Below are positions 26,391-61,123 of a DNA stretch of 64,000 bases, one piece after another. Position numbers and translations under genes: made by a program. This DNA comes from Chloroflexota bacterium (GTDB lineage Bacteria; Chloroflexota; UBA11872; VXOZ01), in assembly GCA_963662335.2 (NCBI GenBank), contig CAXXVD010000002.1, positions 1 to 64,000 of the forward strand, in the 5' to 3' direction. A model generated the notes under the pieces. The model made no database searches, was not told the origin of the DNA, and saw nothing but the letters and a program-made list of their open reading frames with translations. The first letter of the stretch is position 1. Each line of letters opens with the position of its first letter.

Positions 26391-26860
26391 GTAGCGCGGG
26401 GGCTTGTCCCCCGCTCCGCGTAACGTGCCCAGTCGTGGCGCGGGGGCTTGTCCCCCGCCTCTGCCGCCGCGCCTCTCCCGTTCGCGCTGAGCCTGTCGAA
26501 GCGCAAGCGGGGGCGGGTTGCGCTCTTTGACTAACCTTCCATCCGCGCCGTTCACCCTTCGACATCGCTCAAGGCGAACGGCTTGAGCGGCTGCCTGCGC
26601 CGTAGCGCGGGGGCTTGTCCCTGCTGCTGTCGCACTAAACATGACGACGGCAGTACTCGCGTCCAAAATTTCCGGTAGCGCAGGTTTGTAACCTGCGAAG
26701 TTGCTAGGCCAACCCTTTTCGCGTCAGTTTCAATGGCTCCGGCGGGGGACAAGCCCCCGCGCTACTCTAATGCGACACCATTGGGGATCGTCCCCCGCTT
26801 TTCTTGAGATTGCGCGCCAGGCTTCAAAGATGGATTCCCGCTTGCGCGGGAATGACGGAT
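26391..26860. repeat. Large mixed REP cluster including a composite ~165-bp element (26602-26765)
   Basis: At least four palindrome families between convergent genes. Confidence 0.85.
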
Positions 26861-32579: not shown

Positions 32580-33180
32580 CTGTTTGCGCTGAGCGCCACC
32601 TGCCCGTTCGCGCTGAGCGGCCGCGTGTCCGTTCGCGCTGAGCCTGTCGAAGCGCGGCGGTTGCCTCCCTGCCCATCGCGAACCCGCACTCCCATTCCCA
32701 CCGTAGCGCGGGGGCTTGTCCCCCGCCGGAGCCATTGAAACTGACACGTAAAGGATTGACCTAACAGATTTTCAGGTTGCAAACCTGCGACGGGGAATTT
32801 GGACGCGAGTTTTGCCGCCGTTCTGTTTAATGCGACAGCATTAGGGCTTGTCCCCCGCCGCCAGTTGCCGCACGCACTCCCTCTCCCACGTAGCGCGGGG
32901 GCTTGTCCCTTGCCACTTGCTTCACGCCCTGCCGCAAAGATGGATTCCCGCGTGCGCGGGAATGACGGAAACCGTTACGTTATCTTCAGAGGGCACGACG
33001 AGCGTAGGGGCACGACATGTCGTGCCCCTACGCCGTTTCCCGCCTCTCAACCGCGCCTCTTTGTCCGTTCGCGTTATGCGCCCCTTTGTCCGTTCGCGCT
33101 GAGCCTGTCGAAGCGCGTGGCCAAGCGGTAGCCCGCCCGCGTCCGCCGTTCACCTTTCGACAAGCTCAAGGCGAACGGCG
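32580..33180. repeat. Large mixed REP cluster (includes an inverted copy of the 26602-26765 composite at 32703-32857)
   Basis: Five or more palindrome families, including GTAGGGGCACGACATGTCGTGCCCCTAC at 33004-33031. Confidence 0.85.
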
Positions 33181-34764: not shown

Positions 34765-34856
34765 TATAGCAGCCGCCGCCGCGCGCTACGAGAGTAATCA
34801 CCCTGGCCGCCTACCGGCCACACAATGGATTGAAAGTGACGGCGCGTTCTCTTTCC

Positions 34857-34926
34857 GTCATTCCCGCGCACGCGGGAATCCACTGGCTGCGCGGAGAAGA
34901 TGGATTCCCGCTTTCGCGGGAATGAC
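34857..34926. repeat. Inverted pair GTCATTCCCGCGCACGCGGGAATCC...GGATTCCCGCTTTCGCGGGAATGAC
   Basis: Same family at about 26830, 32940, 42923, 58285-58404 and 59752. Confidence 0.85.
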
Positions 34927-34958
34927 GGAGGCTGCCGCGCGCTCCGAGGGAACGGATT

Positions 34959-42696: not shown

Positions 42697-42719
42697 GCAG
42701 TCGTTACCAGCAATCAGCC

Positions 42720-43105
42720 CGTCATGCCGGCGCAAGCCGGAATCCATCTGCGCCAGATGCCGCGCACGGTGTGCCGGACAGGGAACGGACCCTCATTGCT
42801 TCTGGTTCCCTCTCCCTGGGGCTATGGGCTCCCTCCTCGCGGCCTTGCCCCGCCGCCCCGTGCGGGGGACAAGCCCCCGCGCTACGATCAATCACTGCCA
42901 TGACAATAGCGCGGCTGCGTGCGTCATTCCCGCGTGCGCGGGAATCCATCTTCCCTGCCCACGCTCACCCCAGGCGGGGGACAAGCCCCCGCGCTACGTT
43001 AGTGCGACACCATCGGGGACAACCCCCCGCGGTACGTTAATGCGACAGCATTAGGGACAAGCTCAGCGCTACGGCCCTAGATTCCTCGCTTCGCTCGGAG
43101 TGACG
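42720..43105. repeat. Mixed REP cluster
   Basis: Several GGGGACAAGCCCCCGCGCTAC copies alternating with T(A)ATGCGACAGCATTA-like units, plus GTCAT..GAATCC palindromes. Confidence 0.85.
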
Positions 43106-54918: not shown

Positions 54919-56418
54919 CTACTCTTCATCGAATATCCCTTCCAGACCCTCCCCAAAGATCTGCGCCTCCTCGTCGTACGTCGCAAAGGGATCCGGCATC
55001 TCCAGCACGCGGCCGCGCACGGCAATGGCTTTCCAATCCAGCACGTAGGGGATCACGTCCCAGCTTTCGTTCGCGGCCACGTCCTGCCAGTCATCAACGT
55101 AGTCATAGGCCAGGAAAAAATACCGGCGGTCCCACATCAGGTTTTCCAGGTTCGTGCGCAGGTCTTGCCAGGGGATGGCCGTATCCGCGCCCGCGTCGGC
55201 AAGGGCGCGCAGGGCGGCGCCGCGACCGTGGGCGCGGGTGTCGGGCGGCGCGTGCATTTCCGCCGTGTAGGCCGCGTCGCCCTCTACCCAGTAGAGACCG
55301 CGCAGGCGTTTGGCAAGCACGTCGAAGAGGCTGACCGACGGGTCGATTTGGTGATAGGAGAGGTCGAGTTTGATCAAGTCCGGGTCGGTCCAGGCCTGGT
55401 CGGAACCGGCGTAGCGCTTGAGTTGCTCGTGCTTGGTCACCCAATCCAGGTAGCCGTCCAGCCGCGCCGGGTCGCGCTCCAGCTCGTCCAGCGCCCACGC
55501 CCAATTCTCCAGCGTCCAGACCGTATCCGCGTCGCGCCCGCCAAAGCGGCGTTCGGCCTCGCGCAGGTAGCGGCGCTGCACCTCTATGGCGGGGATGTAC
55601 TCATCATCCTCCGTACCCACCGTCCACTTGCCGCCGGTGGTGCCGGCGATGCGGCGCAGATCGCGCACCGGGTCGGCGAGCGCGAGTTGCGGGCTCCAGC
55701 CTTGCTCCAGCAGTTGGGCCACCAGCGCGGTGGCGCCGATCTTCAACGCGGTGGTGAACTCGGAACGATTCACGTCGCCGACGATCACGTGCAGCCGCCG
55801 GTACTCGCGTCCGGCCAGCGGCTCGTCGCGCAGGTTGATGATGGGCCGGCCGCCGAAACGCACCCGGTGGCTCACGTCCAGGGTGACGAACTGCGCCCGC
55901 TGCGAGAGCGCAAACGCGGCCGGCGTATCCTTGCCGCGCGGCAGCAGGCAGCCGGCGCCGGTGTAGAGCTGGCGGGTGACGAGAAACGGCAACATGCCGT
56001 CCACCAGTTCGCGGTCGTAGGGGCTTTGGCGGATGCAGTAGTTCTCGTGGTAGCCGAAGGTGTGGCCGAAGTAGTCGGTGTTGTTCTTGACGAAGTAGGC
56101 CTGGGACTCAAGCCCGGCGGTGCGCACGGCTTCGTTGATGATGGCTTCGCCGGCGCGTTCGTGGGCCACGATGTCCGTGAGCGTGCGGCACTCGGCGGTG
56201 GCGTGCTCCAGGTGGCCGAGGTCGAGGTACATGCGCCCGCCGTTGAAGAGGAAGCCGCCGTTGCCCGGCGCTTCCCCCCATTCCCGGGGCGGCGGGTCGA
56301 TCAGGCCGTGGCGGCAGCCGCGGAAGATGGCGTCCTTTACCAACACCGCCGCCCGCACGGGCTGCACGCTGCCCACGCAGCCGTATTCGATCTCGGTGCC
56401 GAACAGTGCGTCATCCAT
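54919..56418 (-). CDS. pafA: Pup/UBact-type protein ligase (PafA family)
   Basis: FGTEIEYG, GNGGFLFNGGRMYLD..H.E.ATAEC, KNNTD, GYHENY, SQRA, RPIINLRDEP, YRRLHVIVGD, DLSYH, PPDTRA, DW, MPDPF. Confidence 0.9.
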   Translation of the reverse strand: MDDALFGTEIEYGCVGSVQPVRAAVLVKDAIFRGCRHGLIDPPPREWGEAPGNGGFLFNGGRMYLDLGHLEHATAECRTLTDIVAHERAGEAIINEAVRTAGLESQAYFVKNNTDYFGHTFGYHENYCIRQSPYDRELVDGMLPFLVTRQLYTGAGCLLPRGKDTPAAFALSQRAQFVTLDVSHRVRFGGRPIINLRDEPLAGREYRRLHVIVGDVNRSEFTTALKIGATALVAQLLEQGWSPQLALADPVRDLRRIAGTTGGKWTVGTEDDEYIPAIEVQRRYLREAERRFGGRDADTVWTLENWAWALDELERDPARLDGYLDWVTKHEQLKRYAGSDQAWTDPDLIKLDLSYHQIDPSVSLFDVLAKRLRGLYWVEGDAAYTAEMHAPPDTRAHGRGAALRALADAGADTAIPWQDLRTNLENLMWDRRYFFLAYDYVDDWQDVAANESWDVIPYVLDWKAIAVRGRVLEMPDPFATYDEEAQIFGEGLEGIFDEE

Positions 56419-56442: not shown

Positions 56443-56652
56443 CTACTCGCCGCCGGGCTGCGGCGTGGGATCGGGCACTTCGCGAATGATGCGCCGGATC
56501 TCCTCGTCCAGATCGTCGGTCTCGGTCTTTTCCGGCGCTTCCGTGGGCGTTTTCGTCGGCGCTTCCGTGCCCGCCCGCGCCGGACGCAGACCGCGCCCCG
56601 CCGCGCCGGCGGCGGGTTCCGTCCGCGCTTCGTTTCCAGCATACCACGTCAC
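56443..56652 (-). CDS. Small Pup/UBact-like protein modifier ending in GGE (69 aa)
   Basis: AAAGGAGG RBS and a GTG start overlapping the dop stop (GTGA). Sequence: MTWYAGNEARTEPAAGAAGRGLRPARAGTEAPTKTPTEAPEKTETDDLDEEIRRIIREVPDPTPQPGGE. Confidence 0.82.
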   Translation of the reverse strand: MTWYAGNEARTEPAAGAAGRGLRPARAGTEAPTKTPTEAPEKTETDDLDEEIRRIIREVPDPTPQPGGE

Positions 56653-58208
56653 GTGCCGCCTCCTTTGTGCGTTAACCGGTGGAGTTCCTCGATCGTCTGA
56701 CACGCATCCACCATAGCCTGTTGCCGCGCCACCGTCTCGCCCCAGAGTTCGGGCAGGGCGAGGGTGAAGGACGCGCCGTTGTGTTGGAACGTAATCGACC
56801 CCCACTCCATGGCGCTGACGTGGGGCGCGAACTTGGCGAGACAGGCCGCGCGCACGCCGGCGCGGGTGTCCGCCGGCGCGGTGGTCTCGGCCCGCTCGAC
56901 GTCGTCGTCCGTGACGATACGCCGCATCCGCCCCGCGCGCGCGAGCATGTGGTAGAGGCTCACCGCCGGGTCTACCAGGTGGTAGGCCACGTCCAGCCGC
57001 AGCGCCGCCGGGTCGTCCCAATCGATGCGCTCCCCGCCGCCGATCTGGGCGAAGAGCGCCAGCTTGGCCGCCCAGTCCACGCGGTCGCGCAGTTTTGCCG
57101 CCGCGTTCGCCTCCAGCAGGTCCAGCGCCGCGCCCCACTCGTCCAGCACCCAATCGGTCTCGGCGTCGCGGCCGCGGTAGCGCAAGGCGGCTTCCCAGTA
57201 ATGGCGCTGCACGTCCACGGCGCGGACAGTCGTGCCGTCGGCCAGCGCCAGCGGCCGCGTGCATTCCAGATCGCGGGAGACCGTGCGCAGCGCGTGCACC
57301 GGGTGTTGCAGTTGCAAACGCGGGGCCGCGCCTTCCTCCACCAGGTCGAGCATCAAGGCCGTGGCCCCCACGCGCAGGGCCGTGGCGAACTCGCTGCAAT
57401 TGGCGTCGCCGATGATCACGTGCAGACGGCGGTACTTCTGCGCGTTGGCGTGGGGCTCGTCGCGGGTGTTGAAGATCGGGCGCTGGGTGGTGGTATTGAT
57501 GCCTACCTCGGTCTCGAAGAAGTCCGCCCGTTGACTGATCTGAAAACCGCCCTGGCGCCCGTTTCTCGTCTCATGCGTGGAGTGCGCTTCATAGGCAGAC
57601 TGGCTTTCGTGCGCCGCCTTGCCCGCGCCGGCGTAGATTTGGCGGGTGACGAAGAACGGGATGCAGGCGCCGATCAGGTCGTCCAGCGGCACGGCGCGGC
57701 TGACGAGATAGTTCTCGTGGCAGCCGTAACTGCGCCCGTGATAGTCAGTGTTGTTCTTGACCAGGCGCACCCGGTCGGGCTGGCCGGTGGCGGCGTTGCG
57801 CGCCTGCTGCGCCCGCCAGACCACGCGCTCGCCGGCCTTGTCGTGGGCCACCAGGTCGCGGAGGGAGAGGCAGGCGTCCGTGCAGTATTCCGGGTGGTTG
57901 TGGTCGTTGTAGAAGCGCGCGCCGTTGGCCAGCACGGTGTCGGCCAGGAGTTCCTGCCGGCTGAGGCGCTGGCTCTTGGCGGTGTTCTCCGTGCGCAGGT
58001 CGTGCGGGTCTTGATCCAGGCGCGCGACCCGCGTGCCGCGCAAGTCCAGCCGCGGGTCCTCGGCGGCGTAGTCCCAGCCGCGAAAGTTTTGCCCCGCCAG
58101 CGGCGCGCTGCGCACGAGCATCGCGGCCTCGTAGGCAAAGTCCACCGCCTGCGCGCTGTTGGCGCAAATCATGCCGTACTCGGTTTCGATGCCTACGGGT
58201 CGATTCAT
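56649..58208 (-). CDS. dop: Depupylase/deamidase (Dop family)
   Basis: GIETEYG, WDYAAEDPRLDLRG Dop loop, VLANGARFYNDHNHPEY, KNNTD..G.SYGCHENY, FQISQRADFFE, NTRDEPHA, YRRLHVIIGDAN. Confidence 0.9.
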   Translation of the reverse strand: MNRPVGIETEYGMICANSAQAVDFAYEAAMLVRSAPLAGQNFRGWDYAAEDPRLDLRGTRVARLDQDPHDLRTENTAKSQRLSRQELLADTVLANGARFYNDHNHPEYCTDACLSLRDLVAHDKAGERVVWRAQQARNAATGQPDRVRLVKNNTDYHGRSYGCHENYLVSRAVPLDDLIGACIPFFVTRQIYAGAGKAAHESQSAYEAHSTHETRNGRQGGFQISQRADFFETEVGINTTTQRPIFNTRDEPHANAQKYRRLHVIIGDANCSEFATALRVGATALMLDLVEEGAAPRLQLQHPVHALRTVSRDLECTRPLALADGTTVRAVDVQRHYWEAALRYRGRDAETDWVLDEWGAALDLLEANAAAKLRDRVDWAAKLALFAQIGGGERIDWDDPAALRLDVAYHLVDPAVSLYHMLARAGRMRRIVTDDDVERAETTAPADTRAGVRAACLAKFAPHVSAMEWGSITFQHNGASFTLALPELWGETVARQQAMVDACQTIEELHRLTHKGGGT

Positions 58209-58262
58209 CGTTACCTCGCGGTACCGCGTTACCTCACGGTACCGCATTGCCTCGCGGTACCA
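58209..58262. repeat. Three tandem 18-bp units abutting the dop start
   Basis: CGTTACCTCGCGGTACCG / CGTTACCTCACGGTACCG / CATTGCCTCGCGGTACCA. Confidence 0.85.
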
Positions 58263-58661
58263 GCCGAACTACACGAGGGCCTCCGTCATTCCCGCGCACG
58301 CGGGAATCTATCTTCGCCTTGATTGCGGAAACCCACCTTGGCCGCGCAAGCGGGATTCCACCTTTGCCGCGTTCCCGATGGATTCCCGCGTGCGCGGGAA
58401 TGACGGTCCGAAGTCGCCCCCCACTCTCAATTACACATGCGGCCTCGCCCATACTTGGGCGGCCTCGCGGAGCTTTGGCGAATCCGCCTACGCAGCGCTA
58501 TTTTCTAGTATAGCAAGCCGCAGCGCCGTTGGGTCCCCGCGCGCGGCGACACTGCGTAGGGGCACGACATGTCGTGCCCCTACGCGTTGGACTCCAGCGC
58601 GCGCGGGCGATACGCTAGAGGGCGCGCTTCCGTGACGGTAGGCGAACCGGGAGACAACGGC

Positions 58662-59633
58662 ATGACCCTGCGCGAACTCTACGAAACGGCCATCGAAATC
58701 GGCCGCGAGGTTGATCCTCGTGGGCGCGCGGCGCTCGACCGGCAGCTTGAAGCGCGGCGGCGGGAATTCGCCACGCTGCCGGCGTGGCGCACACCCTACT
58801 ACGACCGCGAGCGCTTCACCAATCCCTACGGCGACGTGCGCATCGTGAACGGCCCGGCGGACACCGAACTCGATACCATATTGCTGGGCATAAACATCTG
58901 GACCCAGGAACTCCTGCTGGCAGACCACCTGCGGGGCAACGGCACGCGGGTCGACGCGGTGATTTCCCACCATACCAACGGCATCGGCGTGCCGACGGAC
59001 ACCCTCATCTACGACTCGGTGCCCTATCTGGTGGACCTGCTCGCAAGCGCCGGCGTAGCCCGCGCCGACGCCGAACCGCATATCGACGCTATGATGACCG
59101 AACGCTGGCTCGCCGTCGAGGACGCCAACCGCATCGGCCGGGATACGGCAAAATTGCTTGGCTTTCCCCTGGCCTGCATCCATACACCGGCGGACTTTCA
59201 CCACGGCATCGGCGTGCGCGGCGCGATTGAGGCCGCCAACGCGCGGACGGTCGGCGACGTGGTGGAGGCGCTGCTGGCGCTGCCGGAGTTTCAAGGCGCG
59301 GCGCGCATTGGCGCCATCCCGCGCATCATGGCCGGCGACGCCGCCCAACCGGCCGGCCGCATCTTCCACCAGGACGGCGGCGGCTGGCTTTTTCCGGCGG
59401 ACGTGATGCCGTTGCTCAAAGATGCCGGCGTCGGCACGTTCGTCACCATCGGCTGTTCGCCCGCCCACCAACGAAAGGCTGAGGAACTCGGCATGAACTG
59501 GGTGCGCATGCCCCACGGCGCGTGCGACAACGTGGGCCTCAACCTACTGCTCGATAAGGTGGAACAGCGCCTGGGGCCGCTGAACGTGATCGCCTGCAAC
59601 TACTTCGAGCGGATCACGCGCAATGGCAACTGA
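58662..59633 (+). CDS. NIF3 (NGG1p-interacting factor 3)-like metal-binding protein
   Basis: MTLRELYE.AIEIG..DPRG, YDRERFTNPYGDVRI, ISHH, IHTPAD, PH..CDNVG.NL; family recalled from memory. Confidence 0.7.
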   Translation: MTLRELYETAIEIGREVDPRGRAALDRQLEARRREFATLPAWRTPYYDRERFTNPYGDVRIVNGPADTELDTILLGINIWTQELLLADHLRGNGTRVDAVISHHTNGIGVPTDTLIYDSVPYLVDLLASAGVARADAEPHIDAMMTERWLAVEDANRIGRDTAKLLGFPLACIHTPADFHHGIGVRGAIEAANARTVGDVVEALLALPEFQGAARIGAIPRIMAGDAAQPAGRIFHQDGGGWLFPADVMPLLKDAGVGTFVTIGCSPAHQRKAEELGMNWVRMPHGACDNVGLNLLLDKVEQRLGPLNVIACNYFERITRNGN

Positions 59634-60103: not shown

Positions 60104-61123
60104 ATGGTAACCCTACGCGGTTTGTATGAAACGTCCATCGCGATTGGGCGCGCACTGGATCCCAGGGGCCAGGCGGCCATCGAGGGCCAACTGCGGCAGC
60201 GCCGCGACGAGTACGCCGCGCTGCCGGCCTGGGAGCAAGCGCTCTACGATCAGGAGCGCTTCCGCAACCCGTATGGCGACGTGCGCATTGCCCACGGCCC
60301 GGCGGATACGCCCATCCAAACCGCGCTGGTCGGCATCAACATCCACGTGCCGGAGATGCTGCTGGGCGCGCACTTGGCCGCCAAAGGCACGCGCATCGAC
60401 GCTTTCATTTCCCACCACACGAACAGCGTCGGCGTCTCCGCCTCGCTGGTGGCAGACTTCATGGAGATCAACGCCGACTATCTCATCTGGGAAGGTGTGC
60501 CGGAGGATGAAGCGCGGGCGTCCATCTTCGACTACATGGCGGAGCGCCTGCAAGCGCACGAGGACATGCACCGCATCGGCCCCGACACCGCCAGGCTGCT
60601 GGGCTATCCGCTGGCCTGCATCCACACGCCGGTTGACCTGGCGCACCGCCAGTACATCAACGCGCTCTTGGCACGGGGGAAGCCTGAGACCGTCGGCGAC
60701 ATCGTCGAAGTGATGCTGACGCTGCCGGAGATGCAAGAAGCCGCCCACATCGGCGCATGGCCGCGCGTCATGGTTGGCGACGCGGCGCAACCCGCCGGCC
60801 GCATCCACGCAAAATTCGCCGGCGGCTACGCCTATCCGCCCAGCGCCTATCCGCTGCTGGCGCGGGCGGGCGTGAACACCGTGGTGCAGGTCTCGGCGTC
60901 GGCGGCCACGGTGGACGCCTGCCGCGCGCACGGCATCGCCCTGGTGCGCCTGCCCCACTACGCCACCGACAATATCGGCCAGAACCTGCTGCTGGACGAA
61001 CTGATGCGCCGCCTGGCGCCGTTCAACGTGATTCCCTGCAACTACTTCGGCCGGGTGGACCGGGCGGGCGACTTGGCCAAGTTGCTGGCGGCAGGGCCGA
61101 TCATCAGGAGTCTCCGTCACTAG
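60104..61123 (+). CDS. NIF3-like protein, tandem paralogue
   Basis: Same motifs: DPRG, NPYGDVRI, ISHH, IHTPVD, PHYATDNIG. Confidence 0.7.
   Translation: MVTLRGLYETSIAIGRALDPRGQAAIEGQLRQRRDEYAALPAWEQALYDQERFRNPYGDVRIAHGPADTPIQTALVGINIHVPEMLLGAHLAAKGTRIDAFISHHTNSVGVSASLVADFMEINADYLIWEGVPEDEARASIFDYMAERLQAHEDMHRIGPDTARLLGYPLACIHTPVDLAHRQYINALLARGKPETVGDIVEVMLTLPEMQEAAHIGAWPRVMVGDAAQPAGRIHAKFAGGYAYPPSAYPLLARAGVNTVVQVSASAATVDACRAHGIALVRLPHYATDNIGQNLLLDELMRRLAPFNVIPCNYFGRVDRAGDLAKLLAAGPIIRSLRH

Follow-up and report, generated by a model that had tools for sequence, protein, structure and literature searches.

The protein X, a 69-aa product encoded between homologues of the depupylase/deamidase Dop and the ligase PafA in a Chloroflexota genome, is probably a small and largely disordered protein tag of the Pup and UBact kind, and would form a third sequence family that belongs to a three-gene system of UBact lineage. 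Pup and UBact are the two bacterial Pup-like tag families present in curated libraries, and both are usually tied to the unfoldase Mpa and the 20S proteasome; Pup belongs to Actinobacteria, and UBact is found in Nitrospirota, Armatimonadota, Poribacteria and others. The window, that is, the whole stretch of 64,000 nucleotides that was analysed, contains dop, X and pafA as an isolated minus-strand operon, with divergent ORFs upstream (no Pfam match) and a convergent cysS gene downstream (Table 1). The first-pass annotation had interpreted the same ORF as a new modifier combining a Pup-like helix with an unusual tail. This interpretation is partly supported: X appears to be a distinct Pup-like tag, derived from the UBact lineage and not a Pup-like hybrid.

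Table 1. Features of the dop-X-pafA operon and their positions in the window.
Feature	Position	Strand	Basis
Dop-like depupylase/deamidase homologue	56649..58247	-	532-aa ORF; TIGR03688, PDB alignment, tree
Shine-Dalgarno GGAGG of X	56659..56663	-	6 nt 5' of the GTG; inside the last dop codons
X gene, 69-aa modifier, including stop codon	56443..56652	-	translation, 25/25 relatives, codon pattern
PafA-like ligase homologue	54919..56418	-	499 aa; TIGR03686, missing Dop-loop region, tree
44-residue aromatic/acidic insertion, PafA-like residues 414-457	55048..55179	-	alignment to the PafA of G374

Translation of the X gene yields 69 aa and a stop codon, with the segments that had been read from the DNA: TEAPTKTPTEAPEK at residues 29-42, EKTETDDLDEEIRRIIRE at 41-58 and the C-terminal VPDPTPQPGGE at 59-69. 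The N-terminal half is variable and disordered and is followed by a conserved motif of the EAPxKPxExP type (here TEAPTKTPTEAP), by the amphipathic DLDEEIRRIIRE segment and finally by the invariant tail PDPTPQPGG[EQ]. The start codon is a GTG (56650-56652), and the gene overlaps by 4 nt with the end (TGA) of the Dop-like gene that precedes it.

When the PafA-like protein was used as query, 25 Chloroflexota loci were retrieved (54-92% identity), and in every one of them an ORF lies directly 3' of dop and terminates in ...D[LI]DE[EQ]I[KR]RI[IV]RE[VIM]PDPTPQPGG[EQ]. The proposal of a candidate GG[EQ]-ended modifier encoded between Dop and PafA homologues is thus supported, with GG[EQ] unchanged in all relatives seen. 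The X start overlaps the dop stop in 24/25 loci, the exception being L025, where X begins 2 nt past the dop stop; 11 of the starts are ATG and 14 are GTG. A GGAG-type Shine-Dalgarno sequence precedes X in 26/26 loci, the window included, and is mostly GGAGG, with L025 having only GGGAG/GGAG. Among 16 diverged loci, variable columns are distributed as 9/5/25 over codon positions 1/2/3 of the last 26 X codons, 14 of which change only synonymously, and in the last ten residues changes are confined to positions -7 (T/K) and -1 (E/Q). Five families of the class and 22 database clusters show no amino-acid change in the tail, although third codon positions are saturated. Thus, given the codon-position pattern, the conserved Shine-Dalgarno sequence, the overlap with the dop stop and the presence after dop in all 25 loci, X is a real gene and not a chance frame. 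Moreover, the expectation that standard gene callers would miss this ORF was mistaken, since it has already been called: the protein collection contains 23 such predicted proteins of 69-74 aa, all of them unnamed.

The Dop-like protein has a Gly-rich end (56649-56665, minus strand), which reads ...KGGGT in the window, GGG[TA], GGDT or GG[TNI][QR] in 24/25 relatives, and GERS in L025. Since the Shine-Dalgarno sequence of X lies within the last dop codons, this terminus is probably a consequence of translational coupling rather than a tail of the Pup kind.

Both neighbours of X belong to the Pup-ligase family (PF03136), scoring 503.8 and 352.5 bits where the cut-off is 25. The Dop-like protein scores 435.7 bits with the Dop model TIGR03688, under its equivalog cut-off of 492.3, and 357.6 with the PafA model; its residues 14-522 align to 1-495 of the solved Dop structures 4b0r/5lrt (344 bits), and its likely start is Met14 at 58208, where this end-to-end alignment begins. 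The PafA-like gene begins 24 nt downstream of X, and its product scores 292.6 bits with the PafA model TIGR03686, under the equivalog cut-off of 551.3, and 252.1 with the Dop model, being nearly equal to Dop (209 bits) and PafA (210 bits) in a PDB search. It lacks the N-terminal Dop-loop of about 30 residues (residue 55 aligns with PafA 53 and residue 56 with Dop 84), and it is assigned as the ligase on gene order, the missing Dop-loop region and the tree described below. E9, E11 and D66, which belong to the N-terminal G.E.E strand and the catalytic loop (Asp) and which we take to be catalytic, are invariant in 22 ligases.

Some other features of the locus were also noted. The spacer between X and pafA, 24 nt long in the window, measures 245-734 nt in close relatives. 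A dispersed repeat of about 30-40 nt occurs, in either orientation, in many of the window's intergenic regions (26827-26859, 32937-32969, 34854-34931, 42719-42754, 42889-42953, 58266-58316 and 58377-58406), including the dop promoter region, and is also found in the X-pafA spacers of L006, L008, L009 and L010. An Rfam search of two relatives' loci, long X-pafA spacers included, returned no family, and none matches the repeat. The divergent ORFs upstream of dop, at 58569-59633 (plus strand, 354 aa) and 60104-61123 (plus strand, 339 aa), are paralogues that match each other with about 350 bits; they have coding-like GC3 values of 0.83 and 0.87, have no Pfam match and occur, among the fetched loci, in the window and in L007 only.

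The claim that X is unlike both Pup and UBact is borne out by the profile searches. X has no Pfam or NCBIfam match at E<=10, and the models of Pup (PF05639, TIGR03687) and UBact (PF20513, NF033388) match 0/25 diverse members of the family at the same threshold, while a UBact positive control, the small ORF of the sister genome G374, scores 77.2 bits with NF033388 and 79.1 bits with PF20513. Six-frame model searches of the window's genome also found neither tag in its canonical form, with no match for Pup and a best score for UBact of 13.7 bits at an unrelated site. A profile built from 24 X sequences was compared with 1.84 billion representatives and gave 23 proteins at E<=0.001, among them no Pup or UBact; 22 of these are 55-100 aa long and all have the PGG[EQ] end, and the other one, the 2282-aa P0048 (E=1.7e-4), was aligned to the low-complexity N-terminal half and is taken as a composition match. 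In the PDB, too, the X profile retrieved no chain of Pup (E<=10), and a search for look-alikes in the Protein Atlas gave no usable match.

Direct comparisons between the families point in the same direction. With hhalign on family alignments, X against UBact gives E=0.053 (probability 1%), X against Pup E=0.013 (3.5%) and UBact against Pup E=0.13 (0.4%), so the similarity of X to either tag is not significant by this method, nor did the X family match a single UBact sequence significantly; BLASTP of X against the UBact of G374 gives E=0.11. Since all profile comparisons are weak, X is about as distant from Pup and UBact as those two are from each other. An ungapped alignment anchored at the C-terminus, which was noticed prior to testing, scores modestly above column shuffles: p is about 0.007-0.01 when X is compared with UBact and 0.002-0.02 when it is compared with Pup, and UBact against Pup gives 0.04-0.05. 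In the anchored consensus, the three tags share the G[EQ] end, the Gln at -5 and an amphipathic segment that lies equally far from the C-terminus.

The position of X is also that of the known tags. In a comparison set of 80 metagenomic dop loci, in each of which the small ORF after dop was read, 36 were Pup-type, 32 UBact-type and 4 X-type, and 8 had no such ORF or a cut contig; Pup or UBact thus follows dop in 68/80 loci, and X sits likewise directly after dop. X resembles UBact in being a small disordered protein with its gene directly after dop, a G[EQ] end and a Gln at -5, and in having a basic/hydrophobic amphipathic segment as far from the C-terminus as the one in UBact. With Pup it shares the terminal GG[EQ], the Gln at -5, the gene position, the predicted docking in the ligase active site described below, and an acidic beginning of the helix, rich in D/E, which reads DLDEEI in X and (D/E)xLDEID in the consensus of Pup.

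The tail is where X departs from both. As had been noticed in the DNA, prolines replace the second helix of Pup: the last 12 residues contain on average 4.0 Pro in X, 0.05 in UBact and 0 in Pup, with net charges of about -2.5, +2.6 and +0.7, respectively. Where Pup has the segment ...AEEFVKSFVQKGG (consensus), X has a proline-rich stretch, and the second C-terminal helix motif of Pup (...FV..[FY]VQKGG[EQ]) is missing from X (34 Pup and 28 X tails compared). UBact tails read ...RYRQR[ST]G[EQ], with the [ST]G[EQ] end present in 82/87 of them, whereas X tails read PDPTPQPGG[EQ] and end in PGG[EQ]. All 28 distinct X tails have GG[EQ], with 23 terminal E and 5 terminal Q; UBact has 51 E and 33 Q among 87 tails, and Pup 11 E and 23 Q among 34. 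The suggestion that the terminal Glu makes deamidation unnecessary, leaving Dop only as an eraser, therefore stands for the GGE form found in the window and fails for the family, in which 5/28 tails end in GGQ, the form found in L005 and L025, and would still need deamidation. Judged by sequence, X is a separate small family, always PGG[EQ]-ended and distinct from Pup and UBact.

The flanking enzymes indicate where the system comes from. An unrooted tree was built from 68 Dop and PafA sequences with a quick IQ-TREE search (LG+G4, SH-aLRT values as support). In this tree the X-type Dops group together (support 100) and lie among the UBact-type Dops (support for the nesting 80-86), and the X-type PafAs form a clade (support 100) within the UBact-type PafA clade (support 100), with a long stem of 0.61. 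The X enzymes thus fall outside the Pup-type clades. The sister genome G374, a member of the same class, has a canonical mpa-dop-UBact-prcB-prcA-pafA cluster. It also has five Pup_ligase genes, three of them being PafA-like paralogues off the cluster (L058 C9, L059 C19 and C13:253041-254378); two of these paralogues were put in the tree and fall in the UBact-type PafA clade.

The affinity of the first helix, which had been called Pup-like, was accordingly misjudged, as the enzymes lie on the UBact-type branch, the class itself contains a UBact cluster and the helix aligns with the UBact helix. X is most simply read as an offshoot of the UBact lineage with a minimal dop-tag-pafA system, which would descend from, or be sister to, the UBact-type mpa-dop-ubact-prcBA-pafA cluster, with three genes left in the class. 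On this reading, the tail changed its form while mpa and prcBA dropped out of the cluster, in either order of events. Gene order varies among UBact-type loci, and in L089, L090, L092, L094, L096, L097 and L099 it is dop-prcA-UBact-prcB-pafA, with the tag between the prc genes.

The X-type ligases differ from their UBact-type relatives in two places. The aromatic/acidic insertion near the C-terminus that had been pointed out, WDRRYFFLAYDYVDDWQD, corresponds to PafA-like residues 429-446 and is part of a longer insertion of 44 residues (414-457), which is missing from the UBact-type PafA of G374 and conserved in 21/21 aligned X-type ligases. Additionally, six residues of the G374 protein, just past the N-terminal catalytic strand, are missing in 21/21 X-type ligases; the deletion lies beside PafA-like residues 15-16 (alignment columns 16-21, in the region of 56372-56376 of the window). 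An AlphaFold2 model of the PafA-like protein alone, from a 22-row alignment, has a mean pLDDT of 52.1, with the insertion region below about 50, and at this low confidence the single-chain model is too poor to place the insertion.

A complex of the PafA-like ligase and residues 26-69 of X, with ATP and Mg present, was also predicted, and it places the tail of X in the active site of the ligase with a score of 0.83, the best of 3 controls reaching 0.02. The mark that this score passes is attained by 58/80 solved complexes and 2/110 mismatched pairs, a calibration that is only rough here because own alignments and the ATP and Mg ligands were used, and the pass may partly reflect likeness to, or memory of, the already solved PafA-Pup complex 4bjr. 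At least 70% of the contacts agree between runs, and the pLDDT of the partner is at least 63. In the model, the contacts on X involve residues 44, 48, 51-52, 55-56 and 58-69, and those on the ligase involve the N-terminal catalytic strand (11-17), a loop (115-124) and the region 347-371. The confident interface includes 8/9 invariant X residues (I55, P60, P62, P64, Q65, P66, G67 and G68), R57 being the exception, and the EAPxKPxExP motif upstream of the helix lies outside it.

The 44-residue insertion had been suggested to be the docking surface for X, a role that the model does not bear out: residues 414-457 are absent from the confident interface, an absence that is no evidence against contact. 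At the 6-residue deletion, ligase residue 15 touches X residues 60-63 in the predicted complex, and this deletion would therefore be a better candidate for co-adaptation than the insertion.

By homology with pupylation, we infer a mechanism for X, including its conjugation chemistry, its targets and its fate. The PafA-like ligase would bind the amphipathic segment of X (L48, I52, I55 and I56) on two helices, at about residues 346-371, and would thread the Pro-rich tail along the N-terminal catalytic strand to the ATP site. As in Pup-like tagging at large, the terminal Glu would be joined to a lysine of the target by an isopeptide bond, and the Dop-like enzyme would take the tag off again. In relatives ending in Gln, the Dop-like enzyme would first deamidate the terminal residue. 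The EAPxKPxExP motif may serve a partner that reads the tag.

The distribution of X is narrow and dense. Among 401 sampled Chloroflexota genomes, X was found in 42, corresponding to 42/46 within one class and 0/355 outside it; Pup_ligase matches over the cut-off occur in 43/401, namely the 42 X-bearing genomes, with two genes each, and G374. In a denser sample of the class (81 genomes), X is present in 76, from five families, and Pup_ligase in 78. Within this sample, G374 alone has an Mpa-like match of nearly full length (453 bits), and it is also the only genome with a 20S beta subunit, the 221-bit Mpa match of G426 covering the AAA core only. The window's genome, which is 96% complete, has no Mpa, the best match being a generic AAA protein in a frame of 673 aa, whose 144 bits fall far short of the cut-off of 505. 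It has no 20S proteasome either, with a single weak and unlinked ORF of proteasome fold. This ORF (242 aa, starting MT..., G000 contig C3:463592-464320, L003:1096-1824) scores 22.6 and 20.2 bits with the Proteasome family and lies away from the operon, beside an unrelated ORF of 294 aa; it may be another protein of Ntn-hydrolase fold and not a 20S subunit.

Since neither the Mpa unfoldase nor the 20S proteasome was found, the canonical proteasome route would be closed to X-tagging, and X is more likely to be a reversible regulatory mark or a tag read by another partner. The regulatory mark is the favoured fate and the alternative reader the main alternative.

Degradation could still follow if X-tagged proteins were passed to another unfoldase or protease, for example of FtsH, Clp or Lon type. 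The genome does encode generic AAA proteins, such as the 673-aa frame mentioned above, and X has in EAPxKPxExP a second conserved motif, upstream of the ligase-binding part, with no assigned partner. However, no conserved fourth gene of the operon was found among the fetched loci, the ORFs upstream of dop being confined to the window and L007 and the cysS and ispF neighbours being conserved only within the genus. Moreover, matches to Mpa, PrcA or PrcB of at least 80 bits flank 0/30 X-type loci, while prc genes follow dop in 31/32 UBact-type loci. We consider this route unlikely.

A different possibility is that both enzymes bind or process X and that X is not a protein tag: a small amine could be joined to its terminal Glu, or X could be a regulator or pseudo-substrate, the operon then serving to mature or control a peptide. 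The carboxylate-amine ligase superfamily, according to Iyer et al. 2008 (PMC2588565), includes the Pup-ligase family together with other members that join small amines; the system lacks an Mpa or proteasome that could read a tag, and the ligase has a long stem (0.61) and the 44-residue insertion. On the other hand, both flanking enzymes align to solved Dop and PafA across their catalytic cores, the gene order and the interchange of terminal E and Q are exactly those of Pup and UBact, and a variable, disordered N-terminal half is typical of tags. This possibility is somewhat less probable than the degradative one.

The operon might also be a decaying relic of a UBact-proteasome cluster whose odd tail results from drift, as mpa and prcBA are gone here, yet kept in the sister lineage, and as three genomes of the class (G089, G222 and G350) have neither X nor the ligases. 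The invariance of the tail over five families and 22 database clusters, in which third positions are saturated, makes decay very improbable, and so do the enzyme genes, both of which are intact in 76/76 X-bearing genomes of the class. Finally, a chance frame in a genome of 66% G+C, where spurious ORFs are many and where this frame stays open far upstream as a 318-aa ORF, is refuted by the codon-position pattern and conservation, including the position after dop, the overlap with its stop, the Shine-Dalgarno sequence and the occurrence in 76/81 genomes, and its probability is negligible.

With X read as a tag, its system can be compared with other cases in which pupylation lacks a proteasome or is not linked to one. 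Corynebacterium retains the Mpa/ARC unfoldase and canonical Pup, while the X system lacks Mpa and has another tag family. Three Pup-type, actinobacterial-like loci of the comparison set (L126, L134 and L137) have dop-pup-pafA without intervening prc genes, with mpa upstream in L134 and L137; like them, the X system combines a tag and a ligase without an adjacent 20S. Iyer et al. 2008 (PMC2588565) describe Pup/ligase neighbourhoods without a proteasome link in Plesiocystis and Rhodopirellula, whose ligases have four transmembrane segments. The X system has no such segments and a different tag family.

No description of a Pup-like tag in Chloroflexi/Chloroflexota was found in the literature searched. 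The available text of Hecht et al. 2020 (PMC7947786) and Iyer et al. 2008 (PMC2588565) names only other phyla, and their supplementary alignments might hold such tags.

A bolder reading, which is held tentatively, is that X-tagging is a self-contained third "pupylation code": a reversible and non-degradative lysine mark, handled by a pair of enzymes through an acidic, proline-rich tail, orthogonal to the ligases of Pup and UBact and kept by almost an entire class of Chloroflexota after the loss of the proteasome and its unfoldase.

X would be a third family of Pup-like tags, unseen by current Pfam and NCBIfam models, in a three-gene form and with no Mpa or 20S found in the genomes that bear it, and would thus be a natural system in which to ask what such tagging does without proteasomal degradation. 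The change from the basic UBact tail to the acidic, Pro-rich tail of X, together with the long stem of the ligase, its 6-residue deletion and its 44-residue insertion, would offer a case of co-evolution between a tail and its groove. The X genes are unnamed in current annotation, and a family model would give them a name in most of the class's genomes. Moreover, an orthogonal pair of tag and ligase could serve proximity tagging. If the tentative third code were true, X-tagging would be the clearest natural case of a Pup-like modification that is purely regulatory, as well as a compact orthogonal tagging tool.
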